This document shows positions 1,965 through 43,751 of a DNA stretch of 64,000 bases, piece after piece. The notes beneath the pieces were generated by a model. The model did no database searches, was not told where the DNA came from, and saw only the letters and a program-made list of their open reading frames with translations. The stretch's first letter is position 1. Every line of letters begins with the position of its first letter. Source of the stretch: an uncultured Nitrososphaerota archaeon (GTDB taxonomy: Archaea; Thermoproteota; Nitrososphaeria; Nitrososphaerales; Gagatemarchaeaceae); assembly GCA_963718895.1 (NCBI GenBank), contig CAVRAG010000008.1, positions 864,001 through 928,000 of the forward strand, in the 5' to 3' direction. Made by a program: the position numbers and the translations under genes.

Positions 1965-2010
1965 CTAGGGTCCAGTGATGGGCTGGATGTGGATCTCTTC
2001 GCCGTTCTCG
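1965..2010 (-). repeat. Orphan copy 4 of the tes 3' end (ENGEEIHIQPITGP*)
   Basis: Matches 42078-42123; core GGATGTGGATCTCTTCGCCGTTCTCG is identical. Confidence 0.92.
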
Positions 2011-2174
2011 TCGGGAACTTATCTTATGTTTTCCGCTGGGGTTCGCGGTTCAGTTCTCAGCAGATAGCTTTCCAATCCTTCAGGAGCTTGGAAAGCGAGG
2101 TAGGCTGTTCCGATTTGGAAAAGAGAATCAAAAAGAGGTCTATCCGAGTCGAGAGCGGGTAAGAAGTGACTCGC

Positions 2175-3105
2175 TCAAGCCCTAGTAGGGTGGCCTTGTC
2201 CTGTCGCCAGTTTTAGACTAATCATCTGCTTGAGAATCTCGTCCACTGCAACGCAACAATCGTTCTCAGCCTTGATTGCGTGAACGTGTGAAAGTTCCTG
2301 GAGGGTGGAATTGAGAGCTTGGTCACTCGCCTCGGCATCGTCGTACGAGAATCTGTAACGGTCAAACAGACCTCTTCTCGAAATCGTTACCGGCTTTTCG
2401 GCATCCAGAGCGAACCAATAGTAGCTACTATCAAGGTGAATGGATTTCTCGAAAATATTGATGCGGAAATTGTCCCTGATTGTCGGATACCTATTCTTCA
2501 ATAGATGGGCAAATACTGCTCGGTCGAAGTCCATATCGTTCTTCAAGACCTTTTCCTCTAATGCAAGAAATGTGGGACCGTATGTCCATCCCTTTTCTTC
2601 GGGAAGATATCTTACAATCTCAAGCTCCGCTAGCAAAGTTAGATACTTGAACCAATTAGGGTCGCTGGCTTGAACTTCGGCCCTAGTAACGTAGTGGCTT
2701 CCCATGAACAGGATACCTCAAATTGTCGAGGATCATGACTACGGGAGAGAGGAATTGGTCTGCACCTCGCGTCATCGCAAGTTGGTCGGCGGATGCCTCC
2801 ACCATTATTCTTTCGGCTTGAATCTTCCATAAGTCTAGCCTATCCCAGACTTGTCTTCCGCACTCGCCTCTGGTCGTGGCTTGTATCACGTTCATGTCTG
2901 AGTCAAAGATGATTTGTCCAATGCCGTCCATCGGAATGTATCGTAGAATTGGTTCTTCCGCACTTTTCTCATCCTTAATCCATCGCGGATAGTCAGTCCG
3001 AAGTTCGGCAATCCATTTGCCAGATTCGGATTTGATTCTGCCGACACTTGTCAGGTTGCCATAGTGGCGAAATACGTAGTTCTCTATGATTTGCTTAGCA
3101 TCCAT
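2175..3105 (-). CDS. Hypothetical protein (~310 aa, frameshift near 2700), coupled to the C39 peptidase
   Basis: ORFs 2683-3132 and 2175-2705 overlap; ATG at 3105 overlaps the end of the peptidase gene; lower GC than the flanks. Confidence 0.6.
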
Positions 3106-3679
3106 CTTTGGTCTCGCTCTCGAATTCATCAATTCTGGTACTCCTTCCTATTTGAACTTTCAAGAGGTCGAATCCTCCATAGAGCCACTTTCGCTCGAAG
3201 TCGGCAAGACGCTCCGTTTTCTCCATTGGTGGTCCTGGGTCATTGTAAGTTATCCGACCCGCCTGAACGTCGATGTCAATCACCACGACCGCGTGTTGGT
3301 GGTGAGAAACCCCGTCGCCAACGTATTGCCAAGCGATGCATGGTAAGCCCTTTGAAATCTCTTCAGCTATTTCATTCACGGTACGAAATCTAAATCCGTC
3401 ATCAAATTCGACCGACGGGGAAGCAGCCGCTATGTGTCCATTTAACAGAGGAACGTCGCTCGCTAACGTGCCATCACTCTCCCTTACAATTTTCGCTATC
3501 TCACGAATTGTCAGGTCGGTAATTGGCGTCCGCAATCTGCCGCTCTGATTCAGATACTCAATCACCATCTTTACACAGGTTGGCACGCAAAAGAATTCTT
3601 CTTGTTGGGCTATCAAAGGAACATTGAGCTTTCGGCCAACACTCACGTCGAGCGCACCGAGTGTTGTCTTGAGTATCAC
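3095..3679 (-). CDS. C39-like (papain-fold) cysteine peptidase
   Basis: VPLIAQQEEFFCVPTC, HAVVVIDID and YNDP give a Q-C/H/D catalytic pattern. Confidence 0.8.
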   Translation of the reverse strand: MILKTTLGALDVSVGRKLNVPLIAQQEEFFCVPTCVKMVIEYLNQSGRLRTPITDLTIREIAKIVRESDGTLASDVPLLNGHIAAASPSVEFDDGFRFRTVNEIAEEISKGLPCIAWQYVGDGVSHHQHAVVVIDIDVQAGRITYNDPGPPMEKTERLADFERKWLYGGFDLLKVQIGRSTRIDEFESETKDGC

Positions 3680-3806
3680 GCTTATATCACTTCTACGATG
3701 TCTCCTTATCCATCTGGATTCGCGATTTCAATCATAGCCGTGGAGCACCGGTAAAGTGGAGGCAGGATTACAACCTCCTGATGCGCAGCTCAGAATGGGA
3801 TGAATA

Positions 3807-3898
3807 GAAATGAAGACCGAGAGCTCCGTGGCTCTCGATGCTTAGGTGCCGGTGATTGGCTGGATGTGGATCTCTTCGCCGTTCTCGACCAAGGCGCA
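3807..3898 (-). repeat. Orphan copy 3 of the tes 3' end (CALVENGEEIHIQPITGT*) plus 35 bp downstream with a hairpin; direct repeat of 40806-40897
   Basis: Stop TAA at 3842-3844; hairpin CGAGAGC-N6-GCTCTCG at 3818-3837 is shared with the 40.8-kb copy. Confidence 0.92.
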
Positions 3899-4156
3899 TC
3901 TCCAGGAGAAGAGACTTTCAAAGCGGCGTTGATGAGTAGAACAAACCTAGGGAAGAGTGCATCAGCTCCGAGGCGAAGCATGTGCACATAGACTGGTGAG
4001 ACAGGTCACAGAGTCGCGGGCGACGCGAGGGTGCCATCAAACCTGTTGTGGTTTGACTGCTGTGGTCGTGCTGCCGCCGAGCCAACGCTACCGGGGTTGC
4101 GTTTGCGCATGACTACACATGCCTACACATGCCACATAACCTCCTAATGAGCGGGA

Positions 4157-5658
4157 ATGGGTGCCCAAGGTCAGGCAAAAGAGATGCGCACCTTGAGGGG
4201 GAGGCGTGAGTTCCTCTGGACTGCTGCGGTTGTCTCGCTACTGGTCTTGGGGCCCATATCCGTCTTGGGGACCGTCCCTGCCGCCCACGCCGCGGACCCC
4301 ACCACGATTTCGATCACCACCTCGAACGGCGCGACGGTGTGCCCTGGCTCCCTCCACGGGGCCTGGACTACGGGCTCCATTGGGTCGATAGTAACCGACA
4401 CCTGTTCGATTACCGCTGTCGATGAGGCGATAAAGTTGTCCGGGGAAGGTTGGGCTGCATTTGGTGAATTCCTAGACGTTTTCTTTGACCTGGCTATCCC
4501 CGACCCAGGCTGCGCGCTTTACATCCCCCAAGGGACGACCCTGAACGTAGGCACGGGCGTCACCATCTCCGTCACGAGCGAGGCGACTTATTCTGACGCA
4601 AGAAGAGTACGCCATCATCAACGCCGGCACCATCAACAACAACGGGTCCATAATCGGCGTATCCAGTGGAAATGGCGCAGCTACTCAACTCCGGCACCAT
4701 CAACAACAACTACTACCTACAAGCCGGCGCCACCAACACCAACATTGGCATCTTCAACTCCGGAGTCATCAACAACGACCGGGTACTTGCAGGGATACAG
4801 CGACCTCTACGGCATCATCAACCTCGGCACCATCAACAACGAACTATTCGGCTTCATGGAAGGCGACGGCGGCTCAATATTCTTGGGAATACTGCGACCA
4901 GCGGTCAGGGCATATTCAACGATGAGGGTACCATTAACAACGTCGGGGTCGTGTGAACGGTGACCAGCTCATGGGGTGAAATAGGTGATATGACGTCGGG
5001 TACTATCTGCCCCCTCCCCTACGGCATCTACAACGTGGCCGGCGCCATCAACGACTACTGCGGCACTCCACTGACGGATTCTTCATACGGTGGCACCGCC
5101 CCCAACCCCATCTCCTGCGCAACGGTCGTATTCTACGTGGAAGGTGAAGGCGTCACTGGAGCGATCGTGGGTGGGGAAAGCGTGCCAGGAGAGGATGTGT
5201 ATATCGCCATGTCCTGGGGGCCCTTCGTCCTTCCGTGGACGGATGGTGAATGGCAAGAGGAGAGTTTTTCGCCCGCGAACAGCAACACGATTACCACCTT
5301 GGTGGTGTTCTACGAGCTCATTCCCGCCACGGAGTCGTTCACCTACTCCTTCCCTTCCCACCTCATCTGCACGACACACCCATGGCCTGCAATCGGTAAT
5401 GTGGTGCCAACTTCTAACTGTGCTGCGATGGGGCAACCACTATACACCTGCCTGTCCGGCTGCTCGGGCACGGTCACGCTGGCCGAAGGAGAACATGGGC
5501 CTTTCGTGGTGACGTACTCGCCTCTCGTCCCCCCGACCATTCCGCCCACTGGCGTCCCACAGTTCCCCCTTGGCTTTGCTATTCTATTCGCACTCGCGGT
5601 CCCTTCACTGCTCTTGCTGAGGAAGAGGGCGCTGTCACCGAGAAGTCTCGGTATCTGA
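4157..5658 (+). CDS. Cell-surface protein with Asn/Gly-rich beta-helix-like repeats and a PEF-CTERM-like anchor (frameshifted)
   Basis: Signal peptide (..PAAHA), xINNxGTINN repeats spread over frames, C-terminus GVPQFP + TM + RKR. Confidence 0.65.
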
Positions 5659-5971
5659 TTCCAAGGTTGTCGTTGATTTAGGCGTCGAAGTAGTTTCAGT
5701 GGTTGCATTTCTAGAAGTATAGCTGTCGAAGCTCACCGGCCCGATCACCTATAGCTGACGAGTGCCGCGGTTCTAGGGCCATTAAGGATACGATCCGAGA
5801 AGTTTCGATGGAGGAAGGGATTCGAACCCTCGGCGAGAGGTCGAAGAGCCAGCATAACCGGTACAGTCAGGGGAGAAGACAGGGCTCGATGGCCCACATT
5901 GACTACAGCGAGAAAAATGGTTAACTGGACAGTTGGGAGTTTGAGTCAGTAGAATCAAGCTCATCTTCTGC

Positions 5972-6630
5972 TCATGCAGGCACTTCAATGCGACTGGACC
6001 GGTGAGCCTCCAATTCGAATCGGCGGTGGACTTTCCTTCTGTGCGCTCTTTCCAGCCGCGCCTTTACGAGCTTCCTGAGGCGCTTATACTGGTTCCTGAC
6101 CGTCACATCTTTCACCCCAGCCGCTTCCGCCGCGTCGAACTGGGTCAGCGCCTCGCCGTTCAGCAGCGACGCCAGATAGAGGGCTGCGGCCGCCAGTCCG
6201 GTCGGGTAGACGCCGTCTGTGATCCCCGCCTTCTCCGCCTTCGACAGTATCTCGAGGGCGTCAGCCTCCACCTTCGGGTGAACTTTCGCTCTGGAGGCGA
6301 CCATCGCCAGGCATTCCGCCGGGTCGGCGACGGGGATTTTCAGGTCGAGCTCCTCGACCAGCAGCCTGTACCGCCGGGCTACCGCTTTCCTCTCCACGCC
6401 GCTGGCTGCTGACACGTCTGCCAGCGTCGCCGGGACCTCACTCTCCCTGCAGGCGGCATACAGGGACGCGGCCGCAATCTGGGAGAGCGGCCTACCCCTG
6501 GCGAGACCTCTCTCCAGGCTCTTCTTGAAGATGCGAGCAGCCTCGTCCGTGACCGCTACTGGGATTGAGAGTTTCTCGGAGAACTCGATTAGTTCTTCGA
6601 GAACAATCCCTACCTCAGCCCTGTCGGGTT
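5972..6630 (-). pseudogene. tfb: 5'-truncated transcription factor B (TFIIB cyclin repeats only)
   Basis: EAARIFKKSLERGLARGR..IAAASLYAACR and GVYPTGLAAAALYLA..GVKDVTVRNQYKRL; no Zn-ribbon and no start before an upstream in-frame stop. Confidence 0.8.
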
Positions 6631-6671
6631 GAGGGTCGCTTAACGACGTAGCCTATCACCAGCCCAGAGAA

Positions 6672-7906
6672 TCAGGAGGACAGCCATCGCTCCGTATGCC
6701 CAGGCCGGGCACGGTAGACGTCGTGGTAGTAGTGGTGCTGGTGGTGGTCAGGGTTGAGGTCACGGTGCTCCCAGGCAGGGTGCTGGTCACAGTCGAGGTC
6801 GTGGTGATTGTGCTCCGAGGTCAGGGTATTGGTCACAGTCGACGTCGTAGTGATTGTGCTCCCGGGCAAGGTTACAGTGGTTGTAGCGGTGGACGCCGTA
6901 GAGGTGACAGAGCTGGTAGAGATAGTGTCGGAGATGACGGAGACTGTGTTGGAGCCTTGATTGGTCACGAAGACCTCGCCCTTGGCGGAGTCGTAGGCGA
7001 GGCCGATGGGAGCACGTCCCACGGTCACGTTAGCGATCACCGTGTTGGAGGCGTCTGAGATGACAGAGACTGTGTTGGACGCGTAATTGCCGACGAAGAC
7101 CTCTCCCTTGCCGGAGTCGTAGGCGAGGCCGACGGGAGCAGTTCCCACGGTCACGTTGGCGACCACTGAGTTGGAGGCGTCGGAGATGATAGAGACGGAG
7201 TTGGAGCCTTGATTGGTCACGAAGACCTCGCCCTTGGCGGAGTCGTAGGCTAGACCCTGCGAGACCACTTCCAACGGCCACGGTGGCGACTACCGAGTTG
7301 GAGGCGTCGGAGATGACAGAGACGAAGCCGCCTGCGCTTACCGCGAAGACCTCGCCCTTGCCGGAGTCGTAGGCGAGGGCACTAGGACTGCCCTTCACGG
7401 TCACGTTGGCGATCGCTGTTGCTGGTGTCTGAGATGACAGCGACACCGGAGGCGGCATTGGCGACGAAGACCTCTCCCTTGGCGGAGTCGTAGGCGAGGC
7501 CCTGGGGAGCAGTTCCCACGGTCACGTTGGCGACTACCGAGTTGGAGGCGTCGGAGATGACAGAGACGGTGTTGCCCGCGTAATTGGCGACGAAGACCTC
7601 TCCCTTTGCGGAGTCGTAGGCGAGGCCCAAAGGACCGGCGAAATGAGTCACGGTTGCGACCATGGAGCCTGAGGCGTCGGAGATGACGGAGACTGAGTTG
7701 GAGCCAGGATTGCTCACGAAGACCTCTCCCTTGGCGGAGTCGTAGGCGAGGCCCTGGGGAGCAGTCCCCACGGCTACGCTCACGGTCAAAGCCGCTCCTG
7801 GATGAGCCAGAAGAATCAGGGGGCCGAGCAGGACCAGGAGCAGGAGCGCTGACTTTGCCCCGCGCTGAAGCGATGTAGTACGGCTACTGATAAGCTCCGC
7901 GTCCAA
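6672..7906 (-). CDS. YVTN/YncE-type beta-propeller surface protein with Thr-rich tail (frameshifted, anchor missing)
   Basis: About 42-aa repeats VGTAPxGLAYDSAKGEVFVxNxxSNxVSVISDASNSVVANVT; signal peptide. Confidence 0.85.
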
Positions 7907-7959
7907 GGTTGATCAGCGACCCCCTGTGCTCACGCCGGCAATCCCCAGGTACTGTCCTG

Positions 7960-9750
7960 TCACCAGCTCTGTGCCAAGGAGGCGTTCTCGCCGGCAACAC
8001 GACCCATTACTACTCCCTTGGCCATGCCGATTGTGTCTAGCCCAGCCGCAGCCTCTCCAGCTGCATACAGGTTCGGGATTGTGTTACCGTTTATGTCCAG
8101 CACTTGAGAGTCTCCGTTTACTGGGACGCCGCCGCAGGTGTCGTGGAGAACGACGTTCGTCCAGATGGCGTAGTATGGTGGGGTGCTTATCTGGTGGATC
8201 AATAGGGTTGCAGGCTTGCCATAGTCCGGGTCCGCGGGAGGAGAGGCGGCGACGTACGAGTTGTACTTGCTGATTGTTGCGGTCAGGCTACCCGGAGGCA
8301 CATTTATCGCCGTCTCAAGCGCGCCTAGCGTCGAGGCACTGGCGACAAGGTTAGGGTCTACCACTGCGGGAGGTCCGGCCCAGGTCGCGGGATTGATGAG
8401 CTCCCTTGACAAGCCTGCGGAATCCATTATGGTCCAGCACCCGAGAGTTCCGTACGGGCCGGTCGTGTTCTGGTCTATGGTGTAGTCGTAGAACGAATAA
8501 GGCGGATCCCCAAAGAACCACCCCGAGGTCTCTGGAGTGTTCTCGTCCATGTACCTGTTCCCAAGGCTATTCACGAAGATGTAGTCTGCCGCGCTTGATG
8601 GACTGAGGCCCGGCACTGTGTAGGCTGAACCTAGCGGGAACGAGTGATACAGAGTTCCCCACTGCCTGTGCCAAGCGTGGATGTCCATGTTCCTGTCGGG
8701 TTCTAGTGCCGCGCCTGCATTTATCGCCGCCAACAAACCGGTGCCATCGTCGTAACAGAATGGGGTCCCAGAGTAGGTTATGTTCGGTCCAATTCTTGGA
8801 TCAAATAGTGAGCGCAACCATGGGTTCCCCTTCCAACCCCCGGTTCCGACTATCACAGCCCTGTTCGCTCTGAAATACACCGTCCCCGTGGCCGTCTCTG
8901 CTGCGATTCCCAAGACTCTGCCGGTGAGTGGCTGTTCCCTGATTATCTGGGTCATCTTTGTGTTCAGTTCGATGTCGACGTTGCTCAACTTCTTCAGGGC
9001 GGCTATCAAGGGGTTGCACCACCCCGCGCCACCGGCTGCGGATTGAGGATGAGTGGCACCCAGCCCGCTGGGGTCCACCACGTCAGTGACGGTATCGCTG
9101 TACCACCTTGATCCCCAGAATACGGCCGAGCCGGAGGCTGTGGTGACACCACTGAACTTCGCACCATGTGCTACCAACCAGTTCCAAGTGTCCAGGCTGC
9201 GGTCAGCAAAGGTCCGAGCTACCTCGTGCTTACTCTTCTGTCCCGGTGAGGAATACACGGCTGGGTTTCCGAGCGTCTTGGTCTCAACGTTTGTGTAGTT
9301 AGGCACGTGCGCAGTAAGGTCCGAGTATAGCGTCGCTGCCGACTCGTAATGTCCTGCTTTGATCTGCACAGCGTTGCCTCCTCCAACTCCCAGGAGACCT
9401 CCTGAAATCGTGGCACATCCTCCGAGAACGCTGTTCGATTCGACCAACATTACGGTGGCTCCTGCTTCAGCAGCTGCGAGAGCGGCAGGAAGCCCAGCAG
9501 CCCCAGATCCACAAACGATCACATCTGCAGCTTTGTTCCACGATGACGGGACCACAGCAGGTTGTGCCCTAACAGGCGTTGTCGCTTGCCCGGTCGCTGC
9601 TCGCCCTATTTCGGCGAGCTTCGACGCTGCGGGCGAGCTGAATCGCGGCGCAAGAATCGCCCCCGCGCTGAGTGCCGCGGCTCCTCCAGCCGCGGCTCCT
9701 ACGAACTGCCGTCTGGACAGTTTCTTATCCGTGATTTTTTCTTCTGTCAA
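7960..9750 (-). CDS. Tat-exported FAD-dependent oxidoreductase (flavocytochrome c/fumarate reductase flavoprotein family)
   Basis: SRRQFVG twin-arginine signal, DVIVCGSGAAG Rossmann motif, HDTCGGVPVN..IPNLYAAGE; probable TTG start at 9750. Confidence 0.88.
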   Translation of the reverse strand: MTEEKITDKKLSRRQFVGAAAGGAAALSAGAILAPRFSSPAASKLAEIGRAATGQATTPVRAQPAVVPSSWNKAADVIVCGSGAAGLPAALAAAEAGATVMLVESNSVLGGCATISGGLLGVGGGNAVQIKAGHYESAATLYSDLTAHVPNYTNVETKTLGNPAVYSSPGQKSKHEVARTFADRSLDTWNWLVAHGAKFSGVTTASGSAVFWGSRWYSDTVTDVVDPSGLGATHPQSAAGGAGWCNPLIAALKKLSNVDIELNTKMTQIIREQPLTGRVLGIAAETATGTVYFRANRAVIVGTGGWKGNPWLRSLFDPRIGPNITYSGTPFCYDDGTGLLAAINAGAALEPDRNMDIHAWHRQWGTLYHSFPLGSAYTVPGLSPSSAADYIFVNSLGNRYMDENTPETSGWFFGDPPYSFYDYTIDQNTTGPYGTLGCWTIMDSAGLSRELINPATWAGPPAVVDPNLVASASTLGALETAINVPPGSLTATISKYNSYVAASPPADPDYGKPATLLIHQISTPPYYAIWTNVVLHDTCGGVPVNGDSQVLDINGNTIPNLYAAGEAAAGLDTIGMAKGVVMGRVAGENASLAQSW

Positions 9751-9864
9751 TTGTGATCCCTGGTTGTGAAAATGCGACGGCGAGTATATGGGCAGGACGA
9801 GGCGTTTGTAGGCAAAGGTAGGCATGCGTAAATACAACCCTTGTAGCTCGGAATTGCGGTTGAC

Positions 9865-10413
9865 ATGACCGCTCTTGAGGTCGAGGGGTCGATGAGAAGG
9901 AGCGTCTCGGTGCACTTCAGAATCTCGACGAATATGTACGATTCGCTCGAAGAGGAGGCCAAGAATAAAAACGTCAGTCTGAATACGCTGTTGAATCAGG
10001 TAATCTCCCGCCACACACTCGATGACTTGCTGTTCGAAGAAGAGGGATTTGTGAAGATGACCAAGAATACGCTCCGCGCGGCCTTGAGCCTGATACCGGA
10101 TGACAAACTCAGCGAATTCGGCAGGTTGGCGGCAAAGAATGGCGCGGACGCAAGGATGTTGGCGAGGAGCGACTGCATCACCGTTGACACCGTTCTGGAT
10201 GAACTTCGCCTTTTTTCGAGATCCGGATGGTACTCGTTAAATGAAGCGAAAAGGAACGGGAGGGAGATGATCTCCTTGATACACGATCTCGGACCAACAA
10301 CTGGGCCAAGGCAATCCACGGTCCTTAGTGCTTATGCTACGGGTCTGTTCGCGCTGGTTGGCGTCCGTCCCAAGATTACGACCACAAGTTCCTCGGTCAT
10401 GATCGAGTACTAG
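9865..10413 (+). CDS. Ribbon-helix-helix regulator with C-terminal ligand-binding-like domain
   Basis: SVHFRISTNMYDSLEEEAKNKNVSLNTLLNQVI; divergent from the flavoprotein gene. Confidence 0.7.
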   Translation: MTALEVEGSMRRSVSVHFRISTNMYDSLEEEAKNKNVSLNTLLNQVISRHTLDDLLFEEEGFVKMTKNTLRAALSLIPDDKLSEFGRLAAKNGADARMLARSDCITVDTVLDELRLFSRSGWYSLNEAKRNGREMISLIHDLGPTTGPRQSTVLSAYATGLFALVGVRPKITTTSSSVMIEY

Positions 10414-10529
10414 TCCGTTGTCACTGACTCAACGTCAAGGCGACTTGGGGAGTTCGCAGTCGCCTGAAAAGAAACGAAATCGCCTCAAGATCGCGAGGAT
10501 CTCGGAGTACAGCGTAGAGCTTCCAGTGT

Positions 10530-10592
10530 CTATTCGGAGATTTTCAACTTGGCCGCAGGGACAGGCTCAGGCGTCGAGACGCGCACCATAGC
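10530..10592 (-). repeat. Orphan 3' end of HerA-like ATPase A (AMVRVSTPEPVPAAKLKISE*)
   Basis: Homologous to about 15215-15276; AGGGACAGGCTCAGGCGTCGAGACGCGCACCAT is identical. Confidence 0.9.
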
Positions 10593-11076
10593 CCTCAGAG
10601 CGCCCAGGGAAGACGACGTGACAATCTCATGACTGTTACGTCCGTCGGTGGTCAAACCCCATGATACACGAAGGCTATTGCCACATGTGCATACATCTCA
10701 CATCGCCGGAGCGGAGCAGGCCGGTGTGTTCGAAGCATGACTTTCCCGTCACGCTCTACCAGACGTGCGATAGCTTTGAGGATCTCATGAAGACGCACAT
10801 GAAGGACAGCTCCAAGCATCGCGAGTAGCCGCTTCAGCCTAAGGATAGACGCCAAAGCGCGGGGTTCGAGCCGGGCAAACCGCCGCCCGCGCCTTAGACC
10901 TACTTTCCACCCATCAAGGTACGCTCCGACGATGCCGCTGACCCTCTCGGGCCAGCTCCTCCCCTGCAATACAACTGAGGGGTGCCCGGTGACTTGAATG
11001 TGCTGGGCCAGGGCACCGGATTGCGGACGCGCTCTTTTATTAGGAGAACCCGGGGGCCCTGCTGACGGGGAACAGG

Positions 11077-33750: not shown

Positions 33751-33753
33751 CCG

Positions 33754-34408: not shown

Positions 34409-34454
34409 GCCAAGATACTTCAGAACTATTCTTAAGCATCACCAGAATGCATTT

Positions 34455-34901: not shown

Positions 34902-34948
34902 GGAGTAATCAGCCCCGGACAGTATTTAGGGGGATCTGAGGACGAGAT

Positions 34949-35743
34949 TCAACTCTTCGGGTGTTGCGTGCCTTCGTCGTGTTTCCCTAGATATTCATAC
35001 TCGCCAGGACTCACGAACTTGACGAGCCCTAGGTCGCGGAGCACCTGGAGTTGCTGCCTTATCTTGGGACGTACGTTGTGATTGTCGCGATGCTTTCCTG
35101 CCAGTTCCTCCTCGAACTCGTAGAGCTCATCGAGCTTGAATGTGGTTGGCAATCTCTCGACGCACGTTAGTATGTCCGCGACCCAACCCCTGAGATTGGG
35201 TTTGGTCCTGAGGAGGGAATTACTCTGTTTCCATTGTGCTAGGACTTCCTTCTTTTCTCTAATTACTCCTTGATTGACGACTTCAATCTTGCCGAGCTTC
35301 GGGATATCGTCAAGCGAATAGAGACACCCTTGCCAACCGGCACGTCGTGCCGTCGGCGACAATGGCCTCCTGGGAATTATGCAGCTAGTCGTTATGCACG
35401 ATCTATGAATTATCGTGAGCGCTTCTGCCGACCAGTTTGGTTGATCGTAGTGCAAGAGAAACATGGAAGGCTGTGTTCCTGAGAGGATACTGTTTAGTGT
35501 CGTATGATACTCTGACCCAAGGAGAACGTGAGAGAATCTGTGGGCGCTAGACTTGAGTTGGAATCTCTCTGAGCAGGTCGGAGAATAGAAGTCGTAAACA
35601 CTCGTCCCTTGTGGGAAGGATGCGAGCTCAACTCCACATGACGGGCAATAGAAATTCTGAAGAGCCCACGCTTCCGTTGAGACTCTAGCTATCTGAGAGG
35701 CACTCTTAAGTCGGCCATCCGGAGGAGGTAATGCCAGCTCCAT
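34949..35743 (-). CDS. DpnI-like / Dam-replacing family methylation-dependent restriction endonuclease
   Basis: SASQIARVSTEAW..YCPSCG, FQLKS, PRRPLSPTARRAGWQGC, C-terminal wHTH KIRQQLQVLRDLG. Confidence 0.92.
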   Translation of the reverse strand: MELALPPPDGRLKSASQIARVSTEAWALQNFYCPSCGVELASFPQGTSVYDFYSPTCSERFQLKSSAHRFSHVLLGSEYHTTLNSILSGTQPSMFLLHYDQPNWSAEALTIIHRSCITTSCIIPRRPLSPTARRAGWQGCLYSLDDIPKLGKIEVVNQGVIREKKEVLAQWKQSNSLLRTKPNLRGWVADILTCVERLPTTFKLDELYEFEEELAGKHRDNHNVRPKIRQQLQVLRDLGLVKFVSPGEYEYLGKHDEGTQHPKS

Positions 35744-35849
35744 ACCCTTCCAGTCATGGCAGCAATCAGACCTTATTCTCCTTTATTCCTTCGGGGGGAA
35801 TCGACCCAATCCAACTTCCTCTCCTTGGCTTACCGTCTCAATGTTTGGA

Positions 35850-36160
35850 TTAGATAGACTCAGCCAGCGATCTTATTTCCTGAAACTTCTTGCTACGTAA
35901 CCGTTTGCTGAAAACTGGGATGCGCGCCGCTTCCTCTACGTTAATAGATACTGTGATTGGATCAACTCCGGCAACTCGGGGGAGGCTCCGATACTCCGCA
36001 GAAGTTCTACGACGCCGTTGAGATAGGACGGGCTCACGGGTACCCAGACCGTTCTCGACTTTACTTCCACCACCCCCAGACTTTCGAAGACACCTTGTAT
36101 GAAAACGAGTTTGACATTATCAGGAGCCGCCCTGACCAAATTAGAAAATGCGTCACTCAT
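35850..36160 (-). pseudogene. Small LAGLIDADG-like protein, copy 3 (frameshift)
   Basis: VKLVFIQGVFESLG..LLRSIG then GVDPITVSINVEEAARIPVFS..SLAESI*. Confidence 0.65.
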
Positions 36161-36479
36161 GCATTCAACCGTCAGGGAATCTAATAAACACCCCCGCTGG
36201 ACTGGATGAGACTACAACCTATTCCTTGTCTGTCGTCGAATTGCGTGTGGCAATCTTCCGGACCTTGATGGTGACCAAGTCTCCTTCCTGAATTTGGAGC
36301 GCGGCGCGAATCTCCTTCGGGATTGCCACGCGTCCCAATGCCTGAACCTTCGCTGTGAAGGTGATTTCCAATCTTCCTCATACCGTTACCTAAACACATT
36401 ATTTAAGGACATATGCTCTAATGTTTCCTTATAGCATATACCAAATCTTTAGAAAAAGACCTAGCTAGGCAAGTTCAAG

Positions 36480-36731
36480 TTGCCGCTGAAGGAGTCTGAA
36501 GGGAAAGTTCTGCTCGCCCTCCTCCTGAACGGAGACACTCCGATTATGACACTTCCAAAGAAAGCAAATCTCGGTGGCAATGCGGTATACAACTCCATCA
36601 GGTGGTTGTCTGAGCGCAGCCTGGTTGAAGACATCAGGGAAAAGGGGCGGCCGGGGCGTAGAATCATCAAGCTGACCGAGAAGGGGAAAAGAGTGGCGGA
36701 GCTCCTTCTGAAGGTCGAACATAGTCTCTGA
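36480..36731 (+). CDS. wHTH (MarR-like) regulator
   Basis: AVYNSIRWLSERSLV..RRIIKLTEKGKRVAE. Confidence 0.7.
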   Translation: MPLKESEGKVLLALLLNGDTPIMTLPKKANLGGNAVYNSIRWLSERSLVEDIREKGRPGRRIIKLTEKGKRVAELLLKVEHSL

Positions 36732-36767
36732 AAGACTCAAAAAGTATCTCGGATACTATATTGCGGG

Positions 36768-37265
36768 ATGCAATTCGGTGGAGCGAGGACTCCTCTAGCG
36801 AAGCTGGGTATCAACAGGAAGTATGTCTCCTTGCCCGTTGGCAAATCACCGCAGTCTTCCTCCTCGGCCGTTTCGAAGTCGATGCGATCCAACAAGGCGT
36901 CAGGCACAAAGCCCGAACTCACACTTTCAAGACTTCTTAGGAAGAAAATCAGGCGAAATTCCCTTCCCGGCCGACCTGACTTCGCCTATTCGCGGGAAAA
37001 GGTGGCCGTTTTCGTTAACGGTTGTTTTTGGCACAGGTGCCCTGCTTGCAATCTTCCCATCCCTAGAAGGAACTCGTCCTTCTGGAAGCGCAAGTTCTCC
37101 AGAAACGTTGAGCGAGATGAACTAAATCGCAAAGAACTCGAGGCGAAAGGATGGACGGTCGTTGAACTTTGGGAGCACGAGATTAAGACTAGCCCAAAGG
37201 ATTCGTCGCTCAAGGTACTTAACGCGCTGAATCGGTCTTTGCGGGGCGACCGACTAAATCGGTGA
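36768..37265 (+). CDS. vsr: Very short patch repair endonuclease
   Basis: MRSNKASGTKPE, LPGRPDF, AVFVNGCFWHRC, FWKRKFSRNVERD, VVELWEHE. Confidence 0.92.
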   Translation: MQFGGARTPLAKLGINRKYVSLPVGKSPQSSSSAVSKSMRSNKASGTKPELTLSRLLRKKIRRNSLPGRPDFAYSREKVAVFVNGCFWHRCPACNLPIPRRNSSFWKRKFSRNVERDELNRKELEAKGWTVVELWEHEIKTSPKDSSLKVLNALNRSLRGDRLNR

Positions 37266-37271
37266 ATCGGG

Positions 37272-38531
37272 ATGTCTAGAGAGTCCAACGAGTCTCACAA
37301 TCCTGGTCCAAGTCTCTCTCATCTCGCTAGCTCGGATTCTCAGGTCTCGCTGTTCGAGCCTGAAAGTTCCCTTCGAACCCGAAATCGGTGTACGGACAGA
37401 TGGATTAAACTGATGAGGGATGAACTCCCTAAGATCTTCTCCGTCAATTCCGAAGGACTCGTCGTAGCTAGAAACCGCCTAAGAACCATGGATGAGAAAC
37501 AGGGCGAAGTCATTAAGGATACAGCCAAAGGGTCGAGCCAACGCTATTCTGTCATATTCACGAACCAAGGGGAAAAGGCGAAATCCAATCCGAACCGAAT
37601 CAATTTCGAAGTTTCAAAGTCGGAGAGGGTATTCGACCGCTGTCTGGTCTCCTCTTGCAGAAATCCGAGGTCGAAAAAGGGCAACATACGGGGTTTGTGC
37701 AAGGGAAACCAACACAAGCATCTTGAGGTAATCGAGAAACGTAAAGATCTGCCAGACGGCACGTACTATGCGAGACGCAATGACGAAAACGGTCACTTGG
37801 TAACTGGACCTCCGTTGACGGTTTCTCAAGCAGAGGACCTTCTCAATTCACTCAAGACTAAACTAAGGGAAAGAAGGGAAAGAAAGAAGAAAAGCGGAAA
37901 GGACGAGAGGGATGAGAAGAATCCCCGATTGTGGGGCCCATCTGAACTTAAGAAGCTAGACCATTATGTCGACTGGGTAGGCGTTCTCAGGGAGGATGGC
38001 AGCGGACGAGAGATTTTCGCCCCATGGCACGGGGGCATCGCGGAAGTCCTTCTTACCTGGATAGGGGCCGATGAAGAGAGAGGAAAAAAGGTGGATGAGT
38101 TTGTGGGCGACGTGCTCCAGAATGTAGTGGTAGGCCACATCAAGGATTCGACGACGATGCAGATAGAGTATGAAAGAGGCCTCGGTGAAACCGAAACAGG
38201 TTGCAAAGGACTCGGGGCGCTAGACGTGATTTCCTCTGTGAGGAGTGTCGTAAACAAACACTTCGATGACACAAACGAAGGGATAAGCTGGAAAGTTGAA
38301 GACCGGGAACCGTTCGAGCAAGTTCCCATTAGAATAGTAGCGGCTATGATGGCTCTGGGCTTTGCTGCCGAGGAGGCAAACAGGAGTGATGCTTGGTTCT
38401 GCAAAGAAATCCTAGGGGGAGAGAAGTCTCATTACGCGAGCGCCTACATGTCAGCGGTCTACTATCTCCTCAGACGAGCAAAAGCTAGTCAACCCCAAGC
38501 GACGATGGTAGTACAGGCAATGACGCGTTAA
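37272..38531 (+). CDS. Hypothetical protein, candidate restriction endonuclease
   Basis: 419 aa, low GC, between vsr and a convergent C5 methyltransferase; Cys/His cluster; call is from context only. Confidence 0.5.
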   Translation: MSRESNESHNPGPSLSHLASSDSQVSLFEPESSLRTRNRCTDRWIKLMRDELPKIFSVNSEGLVVARNRLRTMDEKQGEVIKDTAKGSSQRYSVIFTNQGEKAKSNPNRINFEVSKSERVFDRCLVSSCRNPRSKKGNIRGLCKGNQHKHLEVIEKRKDLPDGTYYARRNDENGHLVTGPPLTVSQAEDLLNSLKTKLRERRERKKKSGKDERDEKNPRLWGPSELKKLDHYVDWVGVLREDGSGREIFAPWHGGIAEVLLTWIGADEERGKKVDEFVGDVLQNVVVGHIKDSTTMQIEYERGLGETETGCKGLGALDVISSVRSVVNKHFDDTNEGISWKVEDREPFEQVPIRIVAAMMALGFAAEEANRSDAWFCKEILGGEKSHYASAYMSAVYYLLRRAKASQPQATMVVQAMTR

Positions 38532-38540
38532 GCGACCGAA

Positions 38541-39632
38541 CTAGATTGTTTGATACACCAGTGAGTCTTGGGGTGGACTGAGCCCCTCTTCTCGCAGAAT
38601 CGCTTTGGCCATGGCTGAGGAAAGCTTGACAGGGACTGAATTCCCTACTAGTTTGTACTTTGAAGTCAACGTCTTGGCGGGAAACCTGTAGCTGATAGGA
38701 TAACATTGCATCGACGCGCATTCTCTGACCGTGGGCTTACGATATCTGACTTCGCCCTTGTAATCGGTCTTGATTACCATGGTCTCCCTTGAAGCGTTGA
38801 ACTGGGTTGCCATCACCGTCCGTGAAGGCCTGTCGAGGTCGTCCGGGAATTTCATCTTCCCGTAGTATGCGTGGGCGACCTTCTGCCTCTTGTTCCTCTC
38901 CGCCTCCTCCTTGGTCATGAGCGCATCATCGGGGCTCATGAAGTGGTCCTCCAACTGCCGTGAGGGCATCGATAGCTTGTAGTTGGGATCATGGACGACC
39001 TTTCGCTTCGGTACGGGTTCGATGGGATTTGGAAAGGCATCGATGACCCTTCTCATCGGGACCCACGGTTCGTAAAGCAGGTTATCCAGCGTCAAAGCAG
39101 ATTCCGCGAAGTGTGTCTGAACCGGGCTCGGGTACTTCCCAGAAAGGAGCCTCAGGCGCTTCTGCGGAGCCCCGAAGTTGGCCGAATTGAAGACTTCCCG
39201 GCGCGGGATGTCGAAGAATCCGTCTTCAGCTATGCCCATGTCCTGAAGACGGACACGAGAAGGAAGCGTTTGCAGGAGGCGTGGAACGTTCTCCATAATC
39301 CACCATTTTGGTTTGAGTGTATGCACGAACTTGAAATATGCTAGGACCAACTTCATGCCTTTCTTGAAGTCGCCGCCTCCCCCTCTTTTGGATCCCGAGA
39401 ACTCAGTACAGGGTGGCCCTCCGATCAAGACATCCGGGTGGGGGAACTGAGATGGGTCCAGCGTCTCAATGTCAGCCTTGACAACCTCAGCTTCAGGCTG
39501 ATTCAGCTTGTGCGCCTCCAGGGCAGGGTTCCAGTTGTCTATCGCGTGAGTGACTTGAAATCCCATCTGTCTGAATCCTTCAGAAAAGCCACCTGCACCG
39601 CAGAAGAGATCTATGACGGTGAGACGACCCAA
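38541..39632 (-). CDS. DNA (cytosine-5)-methyltransferase
   Basis: DLFCGAGG, GGPPCTEFS, MENV, PQKRLR, TVRECA, VGNSVP. Confidence 0.95.
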   Translation of the reverse strand: MGRLTVIDLFCGAGGFSEGFRQMGFQVTHAIDNWNPALEAHKLNQPEAEVVKADIETLDPSQFPHPDVLIGGPPCTEFSGSKRGGGGDFKKGMKLVLAYFKFVHTLKPKWWIMENVPRLLQTLPSRVRLQDMGIAEDGFFDIPRREVFNSANFGAPQKRLRLLSGKYPSPVQTHFAESALTLDNLLYEPWVPMRRVIDAFPNPIEPVPKRKVVHDPNYKLSMPSRQLEDHFMSPDDALMTKEEAERNKRQKVAHAYYGKMKFPDDLDRPSRTVMATQFNASRETMVIKTDYKGEVRYRKPTVRECASMQCYPISYRFPAKTLTSKYKLVGNSVPVKLSSAMAKAILREEGLSPPQDSLVYQTI

Positions 39633-39829
39633 AGCTAACCTTTTCGGCCCTTTTGGAGTCTATTAAATACTATTCAATACTCCAGACATACGAGGGAAAC
39701 AGAGGATAGTACAGGTCTTCTGAATCCCAAGGATCGCAGGCTACCAGTGTCCAAACGACGTAATCCTAGTGATCTCACGGTCCTGACGCACACTCCTTGA
39801 GAGTTGGTGGTTATATCTAGGTTAGAGAT

Positions 39830-40771
39830 ATGGGAACCGTGAACAGAGCAGTCTCTGTGCAGGGAGGTTTGCTTGACCTGTTCGCGCCCAAGTTCGGTCT
39901 GGACTCTCTTGGCGCGCCCGGTGAGACAATCATTCTGAAGGTCGTGATAGAATTAAGGAATCAGGGGAGGCTCGTCCTCTTTGCCTCGTATCCAATCAAT
40001 GGGAGGCACGTCCAGATAAGAACGAAGAAGCTCATCGAGCTTGGTCCTGAGGTGAGTGTGGTCTCAGTGAGCCGATACTCGAAGAAGACCTTCATCGCAG
40101 AAGCCAACGATGCGCTCTCGCGCCAGAGCCTGCAGGATCTCCGCGCTTGGTTTCAGATGGCGAGCAGCTTTCACTCAGCGTTGAAGGGAAGCTCGCCCCC
40201 GCGAACCTTGACAGCCTGTACACCGCTGCGGCGAAGGTTTTCGCGCTCATAGAGTGCCAGGGCGCGACCCTCAGGGTCGCTCTTGGAGACGAAGTCGAAC
40301 TCTTCGACACGTCGAGGCGTCGACTAGTCGGGATGAGGATGGAGGGCGAGAAGCTGACTCTCGAGAGGACCTTTCAGCACGGCGGAACTTCGCGTCTGAC
40401 AAGGATGGGGGGTGCCTCGTTTGACGATGAACCGAAAACCGAGAGGCGACGGAGATTGGATAGTTTATGCATTCCATGCCGTGGTAGGCACAGGAAAAAT
40501 CAAGATTCTTGATGTCGTTGTGCTGGATTCAGAAGGCAATCTAGTAGATGAGACCGGAGGATTTCATCTTGTTGAGGTCGACGATGGCAGAGTAACCCCA
40601 AAGAAAGTGAAACTGTTTGTCCAAGAATTTACGGAGGGTTTTCTTCACGCCGAAGGCATCGACGTAGAGCTTCCACTTGAGAACATCAGGCTGACCGATC
40701 TGGATGGGTTGAGCGCGGTTCTCGCCAGGGCAAACTCGCAGAAGTATGGGCCGATCAGAGACCTCCGCTAG
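39830..40771 (+). CDS. Hypothetical protein (frameshifted over three ORFs)
   Basis: Overlapping ORFs 39830, 40147 and 40412; upstream TTATAT. Confidence 0.45.
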
Positions 40772-40805
40772 GCGACGACGCGAACAGTTCACCCGGGGAG
40801 CAGCG

Positions 40806-40897
40806 GAAATGAAGACCGAGAGCTAAGTGGCTCTCGATTCTTAGGTTCCTGTGATTGGCTGGATGTGGACTCTCTTCGCCGTTCTCGCCCCAACGCA
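40806..40897 (-). repeat. Orphan copy 2 of the tes 3' end plus hairpin; direct repeat of 3807-3898
   Basis: Stop TAA at 40841-40843; encodes ENGEE(+1 nt)IHIQPITGT*; hairpin CGAGAGC-N6-GCTCTCG. Confidence 0.92.
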
Positions 40898-41046: not shown

Positions 41047-41457
41047 CTAGGATGTCGAGTAGGTCTTGAAGCTCGTTTCGTTGGTCATTTGATTGACCGT
41101 GCCCTCGACCCAGCCCTTTGTCGAGTTCAGCCAGCCGAGCTTCTGGGACTGGGTCATGTAGGTAACCGACCCGGAGAGTGTCTCCGTAGTGGCGGTCGTC
41201 TGCCTGCCCGTCCCCTTGCCCGTCAGGACGATCACTTCCCCATCCGGGGTGGATTCGATGGCCCTCGATTCGTACTCGAAGGTACCGTCCAGCTTCTGGG
41301 TGATGTCTACGGTCTCGAGGTGGCTCGCTGTGTACCTACCATTGACCTGACCCTGCGCGTTGTACTGGACCTTGATGCCGGACTCGGAGATCTCCTTGAT
41401 GATTATTGCGGTCGCCTTCTCGGTGCACTCGCTGATCTGCTCGCGCTTCCCCATCAT
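41047..41457 (-). CDS. Hypothetical beta-rich protein (cargo between tes-end copies 1 and 2)
   Basis: 136-aa ORF MMGKREQISE..; in frame with the upstream tes remnant. Confidence 0.65.
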   Translation of the reverse strand: MMGKREQISECTEKATAIIIKEISESGIKVQYNAQGQVNGRYTASHLETVDITQKLDGTFEYESRAIESTPDGEVIVLTGKGTGRQTTATTETLSGSVTYMTQSQKLGWLNSTKGWVEGTVNQMTNETSFKTYSTS

Positions 41458-41469
41458 GGGCTTTCCCTC

Positions 41470-41550
41470 CCACGTCCCGGTTATAGGTTGGATGTGGATC
41501 TCCTCGACGTTCTTACCCAAGACGCAGCCACAGCCGGCTACGCGCCCGCC
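41470..41550 (-). repeat. Orphan copy 1 of the tes 3' end (GGRVAGCGCVLGKNVEEIHIQPITGT, stop replaced by TGG)
   Basis: Ungapped 81-bp match to 42078-42158; 22 of 26 residues identical, many third-position changes. Confidence 0.92.
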
Positions 41551-41558
41551 CGAACAGC

Positions 41559-42068
41559 CTAGCCCTTGAGGGTTATCGTACCTATCTGGGCGTACTGGCA
41601 TCCCGATGACGTGCTGTAGGCCCCCGCGCAGGACTGTCCGCCGCTGGCCGTCGTGTAGGCTATCCACAGGGACCCGTTGTAGGTCTGACTCATGACTGCG
41701 GGACCGGTCGCGTTGAGGTTGTGGACCGTCACGGACTGCCCCGACGAGAGCATGTTGCCGGAGAAGTCGCCCGGGTCCGCGGTGAAGTACGCGGCTGTGG
41801 GAGAGAGGTTCGGGTCGCCGGGCACGTACGCGACGGCTACGTTGTACCACGTGGAGCCGTAGGACTGGCTGACCTGCGGGATGGTGATGTCGCCCGTAGA
41901 GGCGTCGTAGGTGATGGCGTTGCCGCCTGCGCCGCAGTTGGTCCTGAGGTAGGGGATACAGGTGTCGGACGAGGCAGGCGCCAGGTAGATCGAGTAGACG
42001 GAGAGGCCGCCGTAGGCCACGATGGCGATGAGGACTATCGCCGCGACTATCTTGACGGTTCTCTTCAC
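41559..42068 (-). CDS. Membrane-anchored secreted protein (first cargo after tes)
   Basis: MKRTVKIVAAIVLIAIVAYGG N-terminal TM; starts 9 bp after the tes stop. Confidence 0.7.
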   Translation of the reverse strand: MKRTVKIVAAIVLIAIVAYGGLSVYSIYLAPASSDTCIPYLRTNCGAGGNAITYDASTGDITIPQVSQSYGSTWYNVAVAYVPGDPNLSPTAAYFTADPGDFSGNMLSSGQSVTVHNLNATGPAVMSQTYNGSLWIAYTTASGGQSCAGAYSTSSGCQYAQIGTITLKG

Positions 42069-42077
42069 GTCGCTGAC

Positions 42078-43751
42078 TCAGGTTCCGGTGATGGGTTGGA
42101 TGTGGATCTCTTCGCCGTTCTCGCCGAGAGCACAGCCGCAGCCAGCCACGTGGCCGCCACGCCTCAGGGTCCCGCGGTAGAGACCGTCCTCGAGCTTGCG
42201 ACCGACCTTCTTCTCCCAGGCCTCGATGGGCATACCGTACTTCTGCTGGACCTTGTCCCTGTACCATTCAGGCAAAACATTAAATGAACAAAATGGTATA
42301 ATTCTCAGGTCCGGCGTGAGGTAGTGGATGTCGCAGCGCTGGAGACGCTCCTCGTCCTGGTTATATTTATCTTGAAAATGCATCATCCCCAGGAACATCG
42401 ACTTCAGGTGGAAGTCGCCTATGGCGGCGTAGTCGTGGCGTATCAGTGCGTTGGTTATCATCTTGGAGAACGAGAGCCCCTTGGGCTGCTTCTGCTTGTT
42501 GACGAACCTGTTTATCTGGGTGAGGACCTTCGCCGCAATCACGTACCTGTTCGTCCCGGAGTATATCTCGTCCGTCTTCTCCTCGAGGTACTCGACGAGC
42601 CCCTGGATGTCGACGAAGTTGGTCAGCGGGACGAGCTTCTTGGTCTCGGCGTCCTCGAAGACGTAGGTCCCGGCTCCGCAGGCGAAGTGTATCGAGAGCT
42701 CGTACTGCTCCTTCTTGGTGAACGCCTCGATGAACGACGTGAGCGGCGAGCACGACGGCACGGGGAACCAGCCCTCCTGTGTTATCTCGCCGTTGGTCTG
42801 CTCCTCTATCCTCTTGATGCAGTCCGGTATCGTTATGCGGTACTTCTCCCTCTCCTTCTTGGTCATGCGCCCCGTGAGCGAGACGGGCTGGAAGTTCACC
42901 GCGTGTACGGTGCCGAGGTTGCGGTGCCCAAAGTCGATTATGGAGCCGAGCTCGTGGTCGTTGATGCCCTTGATCACCGTCGGGACGAGCACCACGCCGA
43001 TGCCGGCCCTCTTGCACGCCTCTATCGCATAGGGCGCCTCCCAGTGGTTCTTGGGGTTCGTCTTGGGCGACGTGCCGTCGAAGGACATGTAGAGGTTGGA
43101 GACCCCGGCGACCTTGAGCCGCTGGGCCATGCCGGGGTCGAGCGCGAGGTTGATCCCGTTGGTGTTGAGCTGGATGTGGTCGACGCCCTCCTCCTTCATT
43201 ATCTGGATTATCTCGGGCAGGTCGTCCCTTATGGTGGGCTCGCCGCCGGTAATCTGGACCGAGTTCCCGGGGACCGGCCGCTCCGCCTTCAGGGTGCGGG
43301 CCATCTCGCGGACCTGGGCGAGGGTGGGCTCGTAGACGTAGGCGCCCTCGAGGCCCTTCTTGACGTAGAAGAAGCAGTACCAGCAGGTGAGGTCGCAGCG
43401 GTTCGTCACGATGATGTTCGAGAGCCCTGTGTGCGAGAGGTGGTTCGAGCAGAGCCCGCAGTTGGCGGGGCACGAGCAGACGTCCATGGGGACGTTCGCG
43501 GCGTGGGTGCCCTTGCCGTCCTTCCAGTACCTCGAGAACTTGGCGAACATCTCGTACGACCCGAAGTAGAGCTCCTCGGTCTCGCCGTGCTGGGGGCAGG
43601 TCTTGGTCATGAAGACCTTGCCTTCGCGCTCGAAGATTATCGCCGGCAGTATCTTGTTACAGTCCGGGCATATCGATTGAGTCTGTCTGATGAAGTTCCC
43701 TTTCGAGACCTCCCTCCTCAGTTCTAGGGAGATGTCTGCGATCTGAGCCAT
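42078..43751 (-). CDS. tes: Radical SAM tetraether (GDGT) lipid synthase, Tes/MJ0619 family
   Basis: N-terminal CPDC..KTCPQHG, CPANCGLCSNH, TNRCDLTCWYCFF (CxxxCxxC), QITGGEPT, FQPVSLTGR, MHFQDxYN, CDIHY..RIIPFC. Confidence 0.9.
   Translation of the reverse strand: MAQIADISLELRREVSKGNFIRQTQSICPDCNKILPAIIFEREGKVFMTKTCPQHGETEELYFGSYEMFAKFSRYWKDGKGTHAANVPMDVCSCPANCGLCSNHLSHTGLSNIIVTNRCDLTCWYCFFYVKKGLEGAYVYEPTLAQVREMARTLKAERPVPGNSVQITGGEPTIRDDLPEIIQIMKEEGVDHIQLNTNGINLALDPGMAQRLKVAGVSNLYMSFDGTSPKTNPKNHWEAPYAIEACKRAGIGVVLVPTVIKGINDHELGSIIDFGHRNLGTVHAVNFQPVSLTGRMTKKEREKYRITIPDCIKRIEEQTNGEITQEGWFPVPSCSPLTSFIEAFTKKEQYELSIHFACGAGTYVFEDAETKKLVPLTNFVDIQGLVEYLEEKTDEIYSGTNRYVIAAKVLTQINRFVNKQKQPKGLSFSKMITNALIRHDYAAIGDFHLKSMFLGMMHFQDKYNQDEERLQRCDIHYLTPDLRIIPFCSFNVLPEWYRDKVQQKYGMPIEAWEKKVGRKLEDGLYRGTLRRGGHVAGCGCALGENGEEIHIQPITGT

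Follow-up and report, generated by a model that had tools for sequence, protein, structure and literature searches.

Displaced 3' ends of the tetraether synthase gene form cassette arrays in a lineage of Nitrososphaerota archaea

Why should the 3' end of a lipid gene recur along an archaeal chromosome, cut off from the rest of the gene and with unrelated genes in between? The question is posed by a stretch of 64,000 nucleotides (nt) from an uncultured Nitrososphaerota archaeon of the Gagatemarchaeaceae (GenBank assembly GCA_963718895.1, contig CAVRAG010000008.1, positions 864,001 to 928,000), which as a whole is called the window here. It contains the tetraether synthase gene tes, a GDGT-MAS homologue encoding 563 amino acids (aa) on the minus strand (42078..43769). 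The protein matched the GDGT-MAS structure 7TOL over its full length (E 6e-130, residues 26-520) and the Pfam families Radical_SAM (PF04055, radical SAM) and Zn_ribbon_HMPTM (PF23545, zinc ribbon), and thereby showed both the core and the full-length homology that mark the Tes/GDGT-MAS radical SAM enzymes. The nearest named record was tes of a Candidatus Gagatemarchaeum stordalenia metagenome-assembled genome, with 97% identity. The working end of the gene, copy A, comprises its last ~83 nt (42078-42160, minus strand). This end is a lineage-specific insertion hot spot, behind which displaced tes ends alternate with unrelated genes, and a homing endonuclease-like protein encoded in the tes 3' flank may have initiated the insertions.

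Orphan tes ends in the window and in relatives

The original prediction listed five tes 3' ends in the window, the working one included, and all of them were found on the minus strand. Negative positions below count back from the end of tes. Orphan B (41470..41550) spans 27 codons, has its left end at about -81 and carries TGG in place of the stop codon. Orphan C (40800..40897) begins at about -50 and consists of a tail with a 1-nt insertion (40841-40897) and a hairpin after the stop codon. Orphan D (3801..3898) begins at about -48, with its tail at 3842-3898 followed by the same hairpin as in C, and orphan E (1965..2016) begins at about -48 to -54. Copies C and D have ~45 nt past the stop in common, including the 7-bp hairpin, and are 92% identical over 85 nt. 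The count of five was incomplete, since a sixth copy, F (20264..20310, plus strand), is inverted relative to all others and two decayed copies lie beyond the window. A degenerate 28-mer of the tes tail matched five sites in the window at no more than three mismatches, compared with 0.00 expected from 100 shuffles. Four of these were copies already listed, and the fifth was copy F at 20270-20297, while copy C was missed because of its 1-nt insertion. A BLASTN search of the complete 3.1-Mb genome with the terminal 123 nt of tes recovered the five orphan copies in the window together with the two decayed, co-oriented copies at C8:848039-848066 and C8:843353-843384, 16 and 21 kb to the left of the window. 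Nothing comparable was found elsewhere in the genome. Furthermore, tes was alone among 2136 gene ends in possessing orphan copies, and no second gene of this kind was detected in the genome; those ranking next either were full-length tandem paralogues or lacked any orphan copy.

As predicted, the copies differ mostly at synonymous positions. Compared with the working end over the last 16 codons, the four originally listed orphans show 14 synonymous and 5 non-synonymous changes, besides the frameshift in C and the lost stop in B. The frame of orphan B reads through its TGG into the next open reading frame (ORF), at window positions 41470-41457 (..ITGTWEGKPMMGK..). The plus-strand genes at about 19.8-28.5 kb form a run that has copy F at its left edge and may be an inverted block.

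The distribution of such arrays was then followed in relatives. Among 20 downstream regions, orphan tes ends of 11 to ~95 codons were found on the tes strand in same-genus genomes (G001, G007, G009, G010, G012, G014, G015, G017 and G020), with variable cargo between the repeated ends, but in neither G008 nor G024 and in none of five genomes of other families. In a search of 76 genome loci in which the tes 3' end is complete, each probed with its own tail, orphans occurred in six of eight loci with at least 87% tes identity, in one of 23 at 80-85% and in none of 45 at 74% or below. In all seven positive loci the orphans were co-oriented and confined to the downstream side, none being found upstream over as much as 10 kb. 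When metagenome contigs were scanned for a 23-nt tail core, 98 stretches were returned, of which 80 (L145-L224) were analysed. Two or more tail copies, and up to 12, were present on 56 of these contigs, and on 51 of the 56 all copies shared one orientation (188 copies in the main orientation against 6 inverted in total). The BLASTN and gene-order comparisons therefore extend the array to further copies outside the window and to related genomes, and the polarity proposed for it holds. The arrays are a property of the lineage, being present in most genomes of the genus related to Ca. Gagatemarchaeum, and not of one assembly.

An assembly artefact or strain chimera could in principle imitate such repeats. 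Many assemblies break inside or just after tes, and 19 tail copies were cut by contig starts. However, separate assemblies show the same kind of array, among them a single-contig chromosome of 2.25 Mb (G007), as do the 56 multi-copy metagenome contigs with their up to 12 copies each, and different genomes have junctions in common, so that the likelihood of an artefact is negligible. Conversely, the nature of the tes 3' end explains why assemblies break there in these organisms. No description of a cassette array behind tes was found in the main texts of open papers, and the main text of the Gagatemarchaeaceae genome paper does not mention the words tetraether, integrase, mobile or island.

Coding origin and break points of the orphans

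A dN/dS-type comparison bears on the proposal that each remnant was once the working end of a different tes allele. For long orphans in relatives, the proportion of synonymous sites at which they depart from the resident tail (pS) is 0.27-0.50, and the ratio of the non-synonymous to the synonymous proportion (pN/pS) is 0.05-0.23, similar to that of intact genes compared between species as controls (0.05-0.17). The nearest relative of each long orphan was some intact tail, often from another species, and not another orphan. This coding-type divergence, together with the affinity to intact tails, indicates that the orphans are former or copied working ends, and supports the view that they derive from diverged tes alleles. 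The long orphans were ruled out as stand-alone genes because their 5' ends lack a start codon. In G014, cargo ORFs of the HicA-like and PIN types terminate in frame, with the stop codon placed precisely where a long orphan begins.

The idea that the array is ordered in time did not hold. Identity to the working end showed no gradient with distance, rho being negative in five of ten arrays with a mean of -0.12. In addition, G014 contains a two-cassette block [HicB-like / orphan / VapBC / orphan] that is missing from G012. The limits of this block coincide exactly with two tail copies, and it has thus been gained or lost inside the array.

The lengths of the orphans were analysed in 145 metagenome orphans with a defined 5' end, representing 108 distinct junctions. 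None of the 145 exceeded 294 nt, and the longer copies were either intact genes (11) or the 19 cut by contig ends. The starts clustered at several positions and not at a single one, namely between -294 and -278, at -80/-78, and around -60 and -51/-48. Every cluster had a sharp upper edge and a ragged lower edge. About 20 unrelated cargo contexts were found at -258 to -294 and 12 at -78 to -80. The genomes agreed with this pattern, with starts at -283, -283, -284 and -293 next to four different cargos and twice at -209; within the window, B belongs to the class at -81 and C, D, E and F to that at about -50. The 3' end of the orphan lay no more than 5 nt from the stop codon in 132 of 145 cases. 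Between the copies the cargo had a median length of 608 nt and mostly consisted of one small gene. HicA/HicB, PIN/AbrB, Fic/Doc, GNAT, aspartyl protease, DUF2283, cupin and HerA-like ATPase genes recurred in this position. The cargo ORFs were co-oriented with tes in 142 cases and opposite in 170, as counted with a crude gene caller that included some spurious antisense ORFs. In tails of the clade with 87% identity, four GGG runs (GGG-N4-GGG-N8-GGG-N6-GGG, sense strand) occupy about -69 to -37, just 3' of the -78 boundary class, and this stretch may form a quadruplex. Synonymous-site conservation of the tes tail, as expected for an embedded DNA site, was not detected in an alignment that contained two wrong ORFs.

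These lengths run against the earlier argument that variable remnants favour homology over a fixed crossover, since they are multimodal with a hard maximum, a pattern that points to preferred break sites. They also bear on the possibility of integrase-free homologous recombination alone, in which circles or linear pieces of tail-plus-cargo DNA would be integrated by the host machinery. Such recombination with circular intermediates has been proposed for displaced rhs tips by Jackson et al. 2009 (PMC2935791). It would agree with the 45-294 nt of tail homology at every unit, with the gain and loss of a block exactly between two tail copies, with the lack of recombinases described below, and with two 99.8%-identical lineages that diverge upstream of -78 of the same tail. 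Once an array exists, every cassette offers tail homology, so the restriction to one gene could reinforce itself. Nevertheless, it leaves unexplained why about 20 cargo contexts end within 17-36 nt of -294 with no orphan longer, and why tes is the sole affected end of 2136. The tails are moreover 80-93% alike, which leaves uninterrupted identity short. Homologous recombination as the whole explanation is accordingly unlikely in our estimate. Cassette insertions or deletions were found in none of the contig pairs with at least 96% identity (0 pairs), and pairs with at least 88% identity, tried as another source, gave mostly trivial tail-to-tail matches.

Discrete orphan starts, a unique target and a genus-limited distribution would also be expected from site-specific integration at an att site in the tes tail, whether by an element or by a host enzyme acting in trans, with the arrays representing decayed elements or integrase-less satellites. 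Direct repeats of the target 3' end flank the units, as they do in integrative elements. Protein-coding genes can serve as targets, as in the case of prophages e14 and 21, which integrate in icd. Among thaumarchaeal integrated elements, 14 of 68 lie in the 3' ends of protein genes and re-use of a site gives rise to arrays, as stated in the main text of PMC6563490; in tycheposon islands, incoming elements push older ones inward (10.1101/2020.12.28.424599). However, no such enzyme was found in the arrays. The genome has four PF00589 matches, none of them in C8:843-907 kb, and no PF00589 match was found in the arrays of G007, G012, G014, G017 and G010, so that the arrays of six genomes are without one. 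PF00239, PF01867 (Cas1) and PF16795 were likewise absent from the arrays of five genomes. TBLASTN with the four integrases of the genome detected nothing, not even integrase fragments as in tycheposon islands, whether in the arrays on 54 stretches of genomes or in metagenome contigs totalling 324 kb. No attC-like fold was seen, the DNA folds of six tail copies having z values of -1.41 to +0.16. No conserved motif was present on the cargo side of the junctions, the tail core occurred in no viral contig, and a unit of about 0.6 kb is too small to code for an integrase itself. The original statement that neither an integrase nor attC is visible is thereby borne out for tyrosine and serine recombinases in the arrays, and site-specific integration appears rather improbable. 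A conserved 444-aa tyrosine recombinase (L001, G000:C8:1337640-1341140) was considered as a trans-acting enzyme and set aside as belonging to an ordinary tRNA-integrated element, because its frame begins in a tRNA-like 3' end and it lies beside a HerA-like ATPase.

A tes-linked endonuclease-like gene and a break-repair model

A gene family overlooked in the original prediction recurs in the arrays. It has at least 58 homologues and encodes proteins of roughly 400 aa, with 395 aa for the member on contig C10 of G017. Two LAGLIDADG motifs lie around residues 188-198 and 300-309, and a conserved acidic residue closes each of them. In 31 sequences D195 was invariant and D308 nearly so, and we take these to be the catalytic acidic residues. 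Pfam LAGLIDADG_3 matched four of six family members. An AlphaFold model (predicted local distance difference test 90.1) displayed the alpha-beta-beta-alpha-beta-beta-alpha double-domain fold of LAGLIDADG proteins. Its top Foldseek matches were PI-SceI, I-DmoI (template modelling score 0.65 on the target) and I-Tsp061I, and E values ranged from 4e-6 to 5e-4 for these three and I-SceI. Paralogues at 25-35% identity are common across the archaeal family (44 of 81 genomes). Close members, with at least 48% identity to the G017 copy, shared a contig with tes or its tails at a distance of no more than 11 kb in seven of eight contexts, so that the gene shows a specific linkage to the 3' flank of tes. 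On contig C10 of G017 and in G042 and G049, which represent three genera, it directly follows intact tes in convergent orientation. It lies 3.5 kb downstream of tes in G015, and occurs on the orphan-bearing metagenome contigs L148 and L223. In the eighth context (G041), no tes was found in the 13 kb covered. A member with 26% identity is the first gene after tes in L174. The window itself contains a frameshifted relic (31311..32553, plus strand), which is 53-54% identical to intact members over residues 9-308, with the region of the second motif in another frame and interrupted by stops. In G049 (L244 about 8150-8170), a core-like stretch of ~20 nt (..TTCACATCCAGGCC..) lies between the tes stop and the convergent endonuclease-like gene; it is doubtful and may be a tiny orphan.

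The most recent event found was that in two G017 strains with 96% identical tes, which differ by 1.44 kb directly after the stop codon. The endonuclease-like gene is the only gene in this insert. The insert ends in a 27-nt internal piece of tes starting at -209, like an older orphan in the same array, so that on C10 the endonuclease-like ORF stands between the working C-terminus and a displaced 27-nt remnant. The left junction is homologous, and the right one shows a 3-nt AGG microhomology to the flank of the other strain. Homology-anchored insertion, as originally suggested, is therefore supported by one recent case, and the interpretation given then is partly supported as a whole.

The linkage of the putative endonuclease, its position in the most recent insert and the similarity of the layout to mobile LAGLIDADG ORFs led us to rank first a model in which tes ends are replaced through endonuclease-triggered, homology-anchored repair, repeated many times with passenger genes. 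It is offered tentatively, as the likeliest of the readings considered. A free-standing double-LAGLIDADG homing endonuclease encoded in the tes 3' flank would start each event by a double-strand break in the tail region of tes alleles that lack the endonuclease gene. The left end of the break would be repaired by homologous copying from a donor, bringing in the donor tail and whatever lies behind it, whereas the right end would be joined by annealing to a tail copy or through microhomology. The part of the resident tail between the break and the stop codon would remain downstream as an orphan, and genes between two tail copies, such as toxin-antitoxin and restriction-modification genes, would be carried as passengers. 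Later recombination between tail copies could then add, delete and occasionally invert blocks. Throughout, tes would stay whole, since the gene body is never without an attached tail copy. The putative endonuclease thus offers a source of site-specific breaks, and cleavage of tes by this protein, the position of the cut and the origin of orphans from such cuts are what the model predicts. It would explain why orphan lengths stop at 294 nt and have ragged edges, why many cargo contexts meet a single boundary, why the orphans derive from coding sequence, why tes alone is affected and why integrases are absent.

Several observations weigh against break repair by this protein. The endonuclease-like gene is rare, being found at four of 80 metagenome loci and in a handful of genomes, and most cassettes and orphans carry cargo unrelated to it. 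In G042, G049 and L174, no orphan was detected beside the endonuclease-like gene that directly follows intact tes, and the relic in the window has no tail copy beside it, the nearest one (C, 40841) being ~8.3 kb away. Foldseek also matched the model to WhiA, a non-cutting LAGLIDADG relative, and a sequence profile of the family matched nothing in the PDB at E<=1. Several classes of break point would require several specificities or resection hot spots. Moreover, a comparison of tail with body identity in intact tes revealed no discordant tails, the tails being phylogenetically in step with their bodies. Synonymous divergence was higher in the tail than in the rest of the gene in 146 of 153 non-independent pairs, with a peak at codons 49-98 from the tes end (0.63 against about 0.44 in the array clade). 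It was dropped as a sign of tail exchange because the array-free sister clade at 80-85% identity has the same peak (0.85 against about 0.60).

A bolder and more doubtful extension of the break-repair model is that of a chromosomal "homing cassette array", in which the endonuclease would have turned the end of a lipid gene into a self-renewing, integrase-free capture platform. If so, 0.6-kb cassettes with toxin-antitoxin, restriction-modification and secreted-protein genes would be shared and shuffled at one address throughout a genus of soil archaea, and the array would be a functional integron analogue operating by break repair. A mechanism of fungal mitochondria would then extend to archaeal chromosomes, working repeatedly and with passengers. 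If break-induced, homology-anchored repair does build cassette arrays, archaeal gene capture needs no integrases, and integrase-based surveys of mobile DNA would miss a class of flexible islands. The locus also provides a handle on horizontal gene flow in uncultured Thaumarchaeota of acid soil and peat: its address is fixed, a stretch of 20 nt serves as a marker, and public data already contain over 100 distinct cassettes.

Cargo of the window and likeness to known systems

The cargo of the window was largely as originally described. The cassette between A and B holds a 169-aa protein with an N-terminal hydrophobic segment and no Pfam family (41559..42068, minus strand). It begins 7 nt past the tes stop, and its homologues in two other genomes (71-72% nt identity) do not adjoin tes tails. 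The second cassette, between B and C, encodes a 136-aa protein, also without a Pfam family (41047..41457, minus strand). Copies C and D enclose a mosaic block of 37 kb (3899..40799) with a GC content of 0.50-0.69 and no recombinase. It contains a TFIIB fragment, NHL beta-propeller proteins, an FAD oxidoreductase, DUF996, a PIN toxin, an aspartyl protease, two HerA/DUF87 ATPases, a RecA/KaiC-like ATPase, DinB, a DpnI-like enzyme and a C5 methylase. All of the following lie on the minus strand: a 147-aa ORF with a single TFIIB repeat, which is either a fragment of transcription factor B or a short paralogue (5972-6415); the paralogous HerA/DUF87 ATPases, mad8-like and TrwB-like (15198-16418 and 29387-30526); and, in the low-GC part of the block, the DpnI-like, methyl-directed endonuclease (34949-35743) and the C5 cytosine methylase (38541-39632). 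Fragments of HerA/DUF87 ATPases also occur in the island at C8:858752, 875860 and 851458, and the family adjoins the tRNA-linked integrase at C8:1339 kb. PADLOC, applied to 10 cargo proteins, returned only HerA/mad8-like matches. The description of the cargo between D and E as a pair of C39 peptidases had to be corrected: this low-GC segment (0.47-0.49; 2175..3679, minus strand) comprises three ORFs, of which only 3095-3679 is C39-like and the other two have no Pfam match.

On the far side of the array lies an aldo/keto reductase gene that is convergent with tes (626..1738, plus strand). It is 94% identical at the nucleotide level to its counterpart in G007, where it also follows the last strong orphan, and the ancestral order is tes facing this conserved flank. 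Since the decayed tail copies lie beyond the aldo/keto reductase gene, the variable region either spans about 63 kb or was rearranged. The upstream neighbours of the array include VapBC pairs, SnoaL and KaiC, and no intI. Two VapBC (PIN and AbrB/MazE) pairs are located directly upstream of tes, at 44175-44878 (minus strand) and 45291-45924 (plus strand). Gene order upstream of tes is not conserved, even in comparison with the 95%-identical G007.

A close parallel to the G017 unit is provided by mobile LAGLIDADG ORFs (mORFs) in the mitochondria of Glomus and Allomyces. As described in PMC3630166, these supply a gene with a foreign C-terminus and shift its native C-terminus downstream, the duplicates differ mostly at synonymous positions, no integrase is involved, and the genes concerned are atp6 in Allomyces and atp6, atp9, cox2 and nad3 in Glomus. 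The order of gene core, foreign C-terminal segment, LAGLIDADG ORF and displaced native C-terminus is matched by the unit on G017 C10. Unlike the mORFs, the tes arrays belong to a chromosomal archaeal gene, their endonuclease-like gene is convergent and not in phase, their events are repeated up to 12 times per contig with mostly unrelated passengers, and cutting is here a prediction.

C-terminal displacement in rhs genes (PMC2935791) resembles the tes arrays in that displaced gene ends follow the full gene in series and in one orientation, and a conserved piece in each displaced end was found in the tes arrays as well. However, the rhs tips are a variable functional payload, whereas the tes tips are conserved and the payload consists of separate genes between them. 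Tycheposons and thaumarchaeal integrated elements have in common with the tes arrays the repeated partial 3' ends of a target, newer ones pushing older ones inward, and cargo for defence or niche adaptation. Those islands hold integrases or fragments of them, and none were found in the tes arrays. Furthermore, tes is not among the targets named in the main text of PMC6563490, where "radical SAM" does not occur. With integrons, the arrays share single-gene cassettes of about 0.6 kb that are rich in toxin-antitoxin genes, with a repeated site at each; they differ in having no intI beside the array, no folded attC-like site and no common orientation of the cassettes (142 co-oriented against 170 opposite ORFs). 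Taken together, the tes array noted in the original prediction is confirmed, and it is larger than first described.

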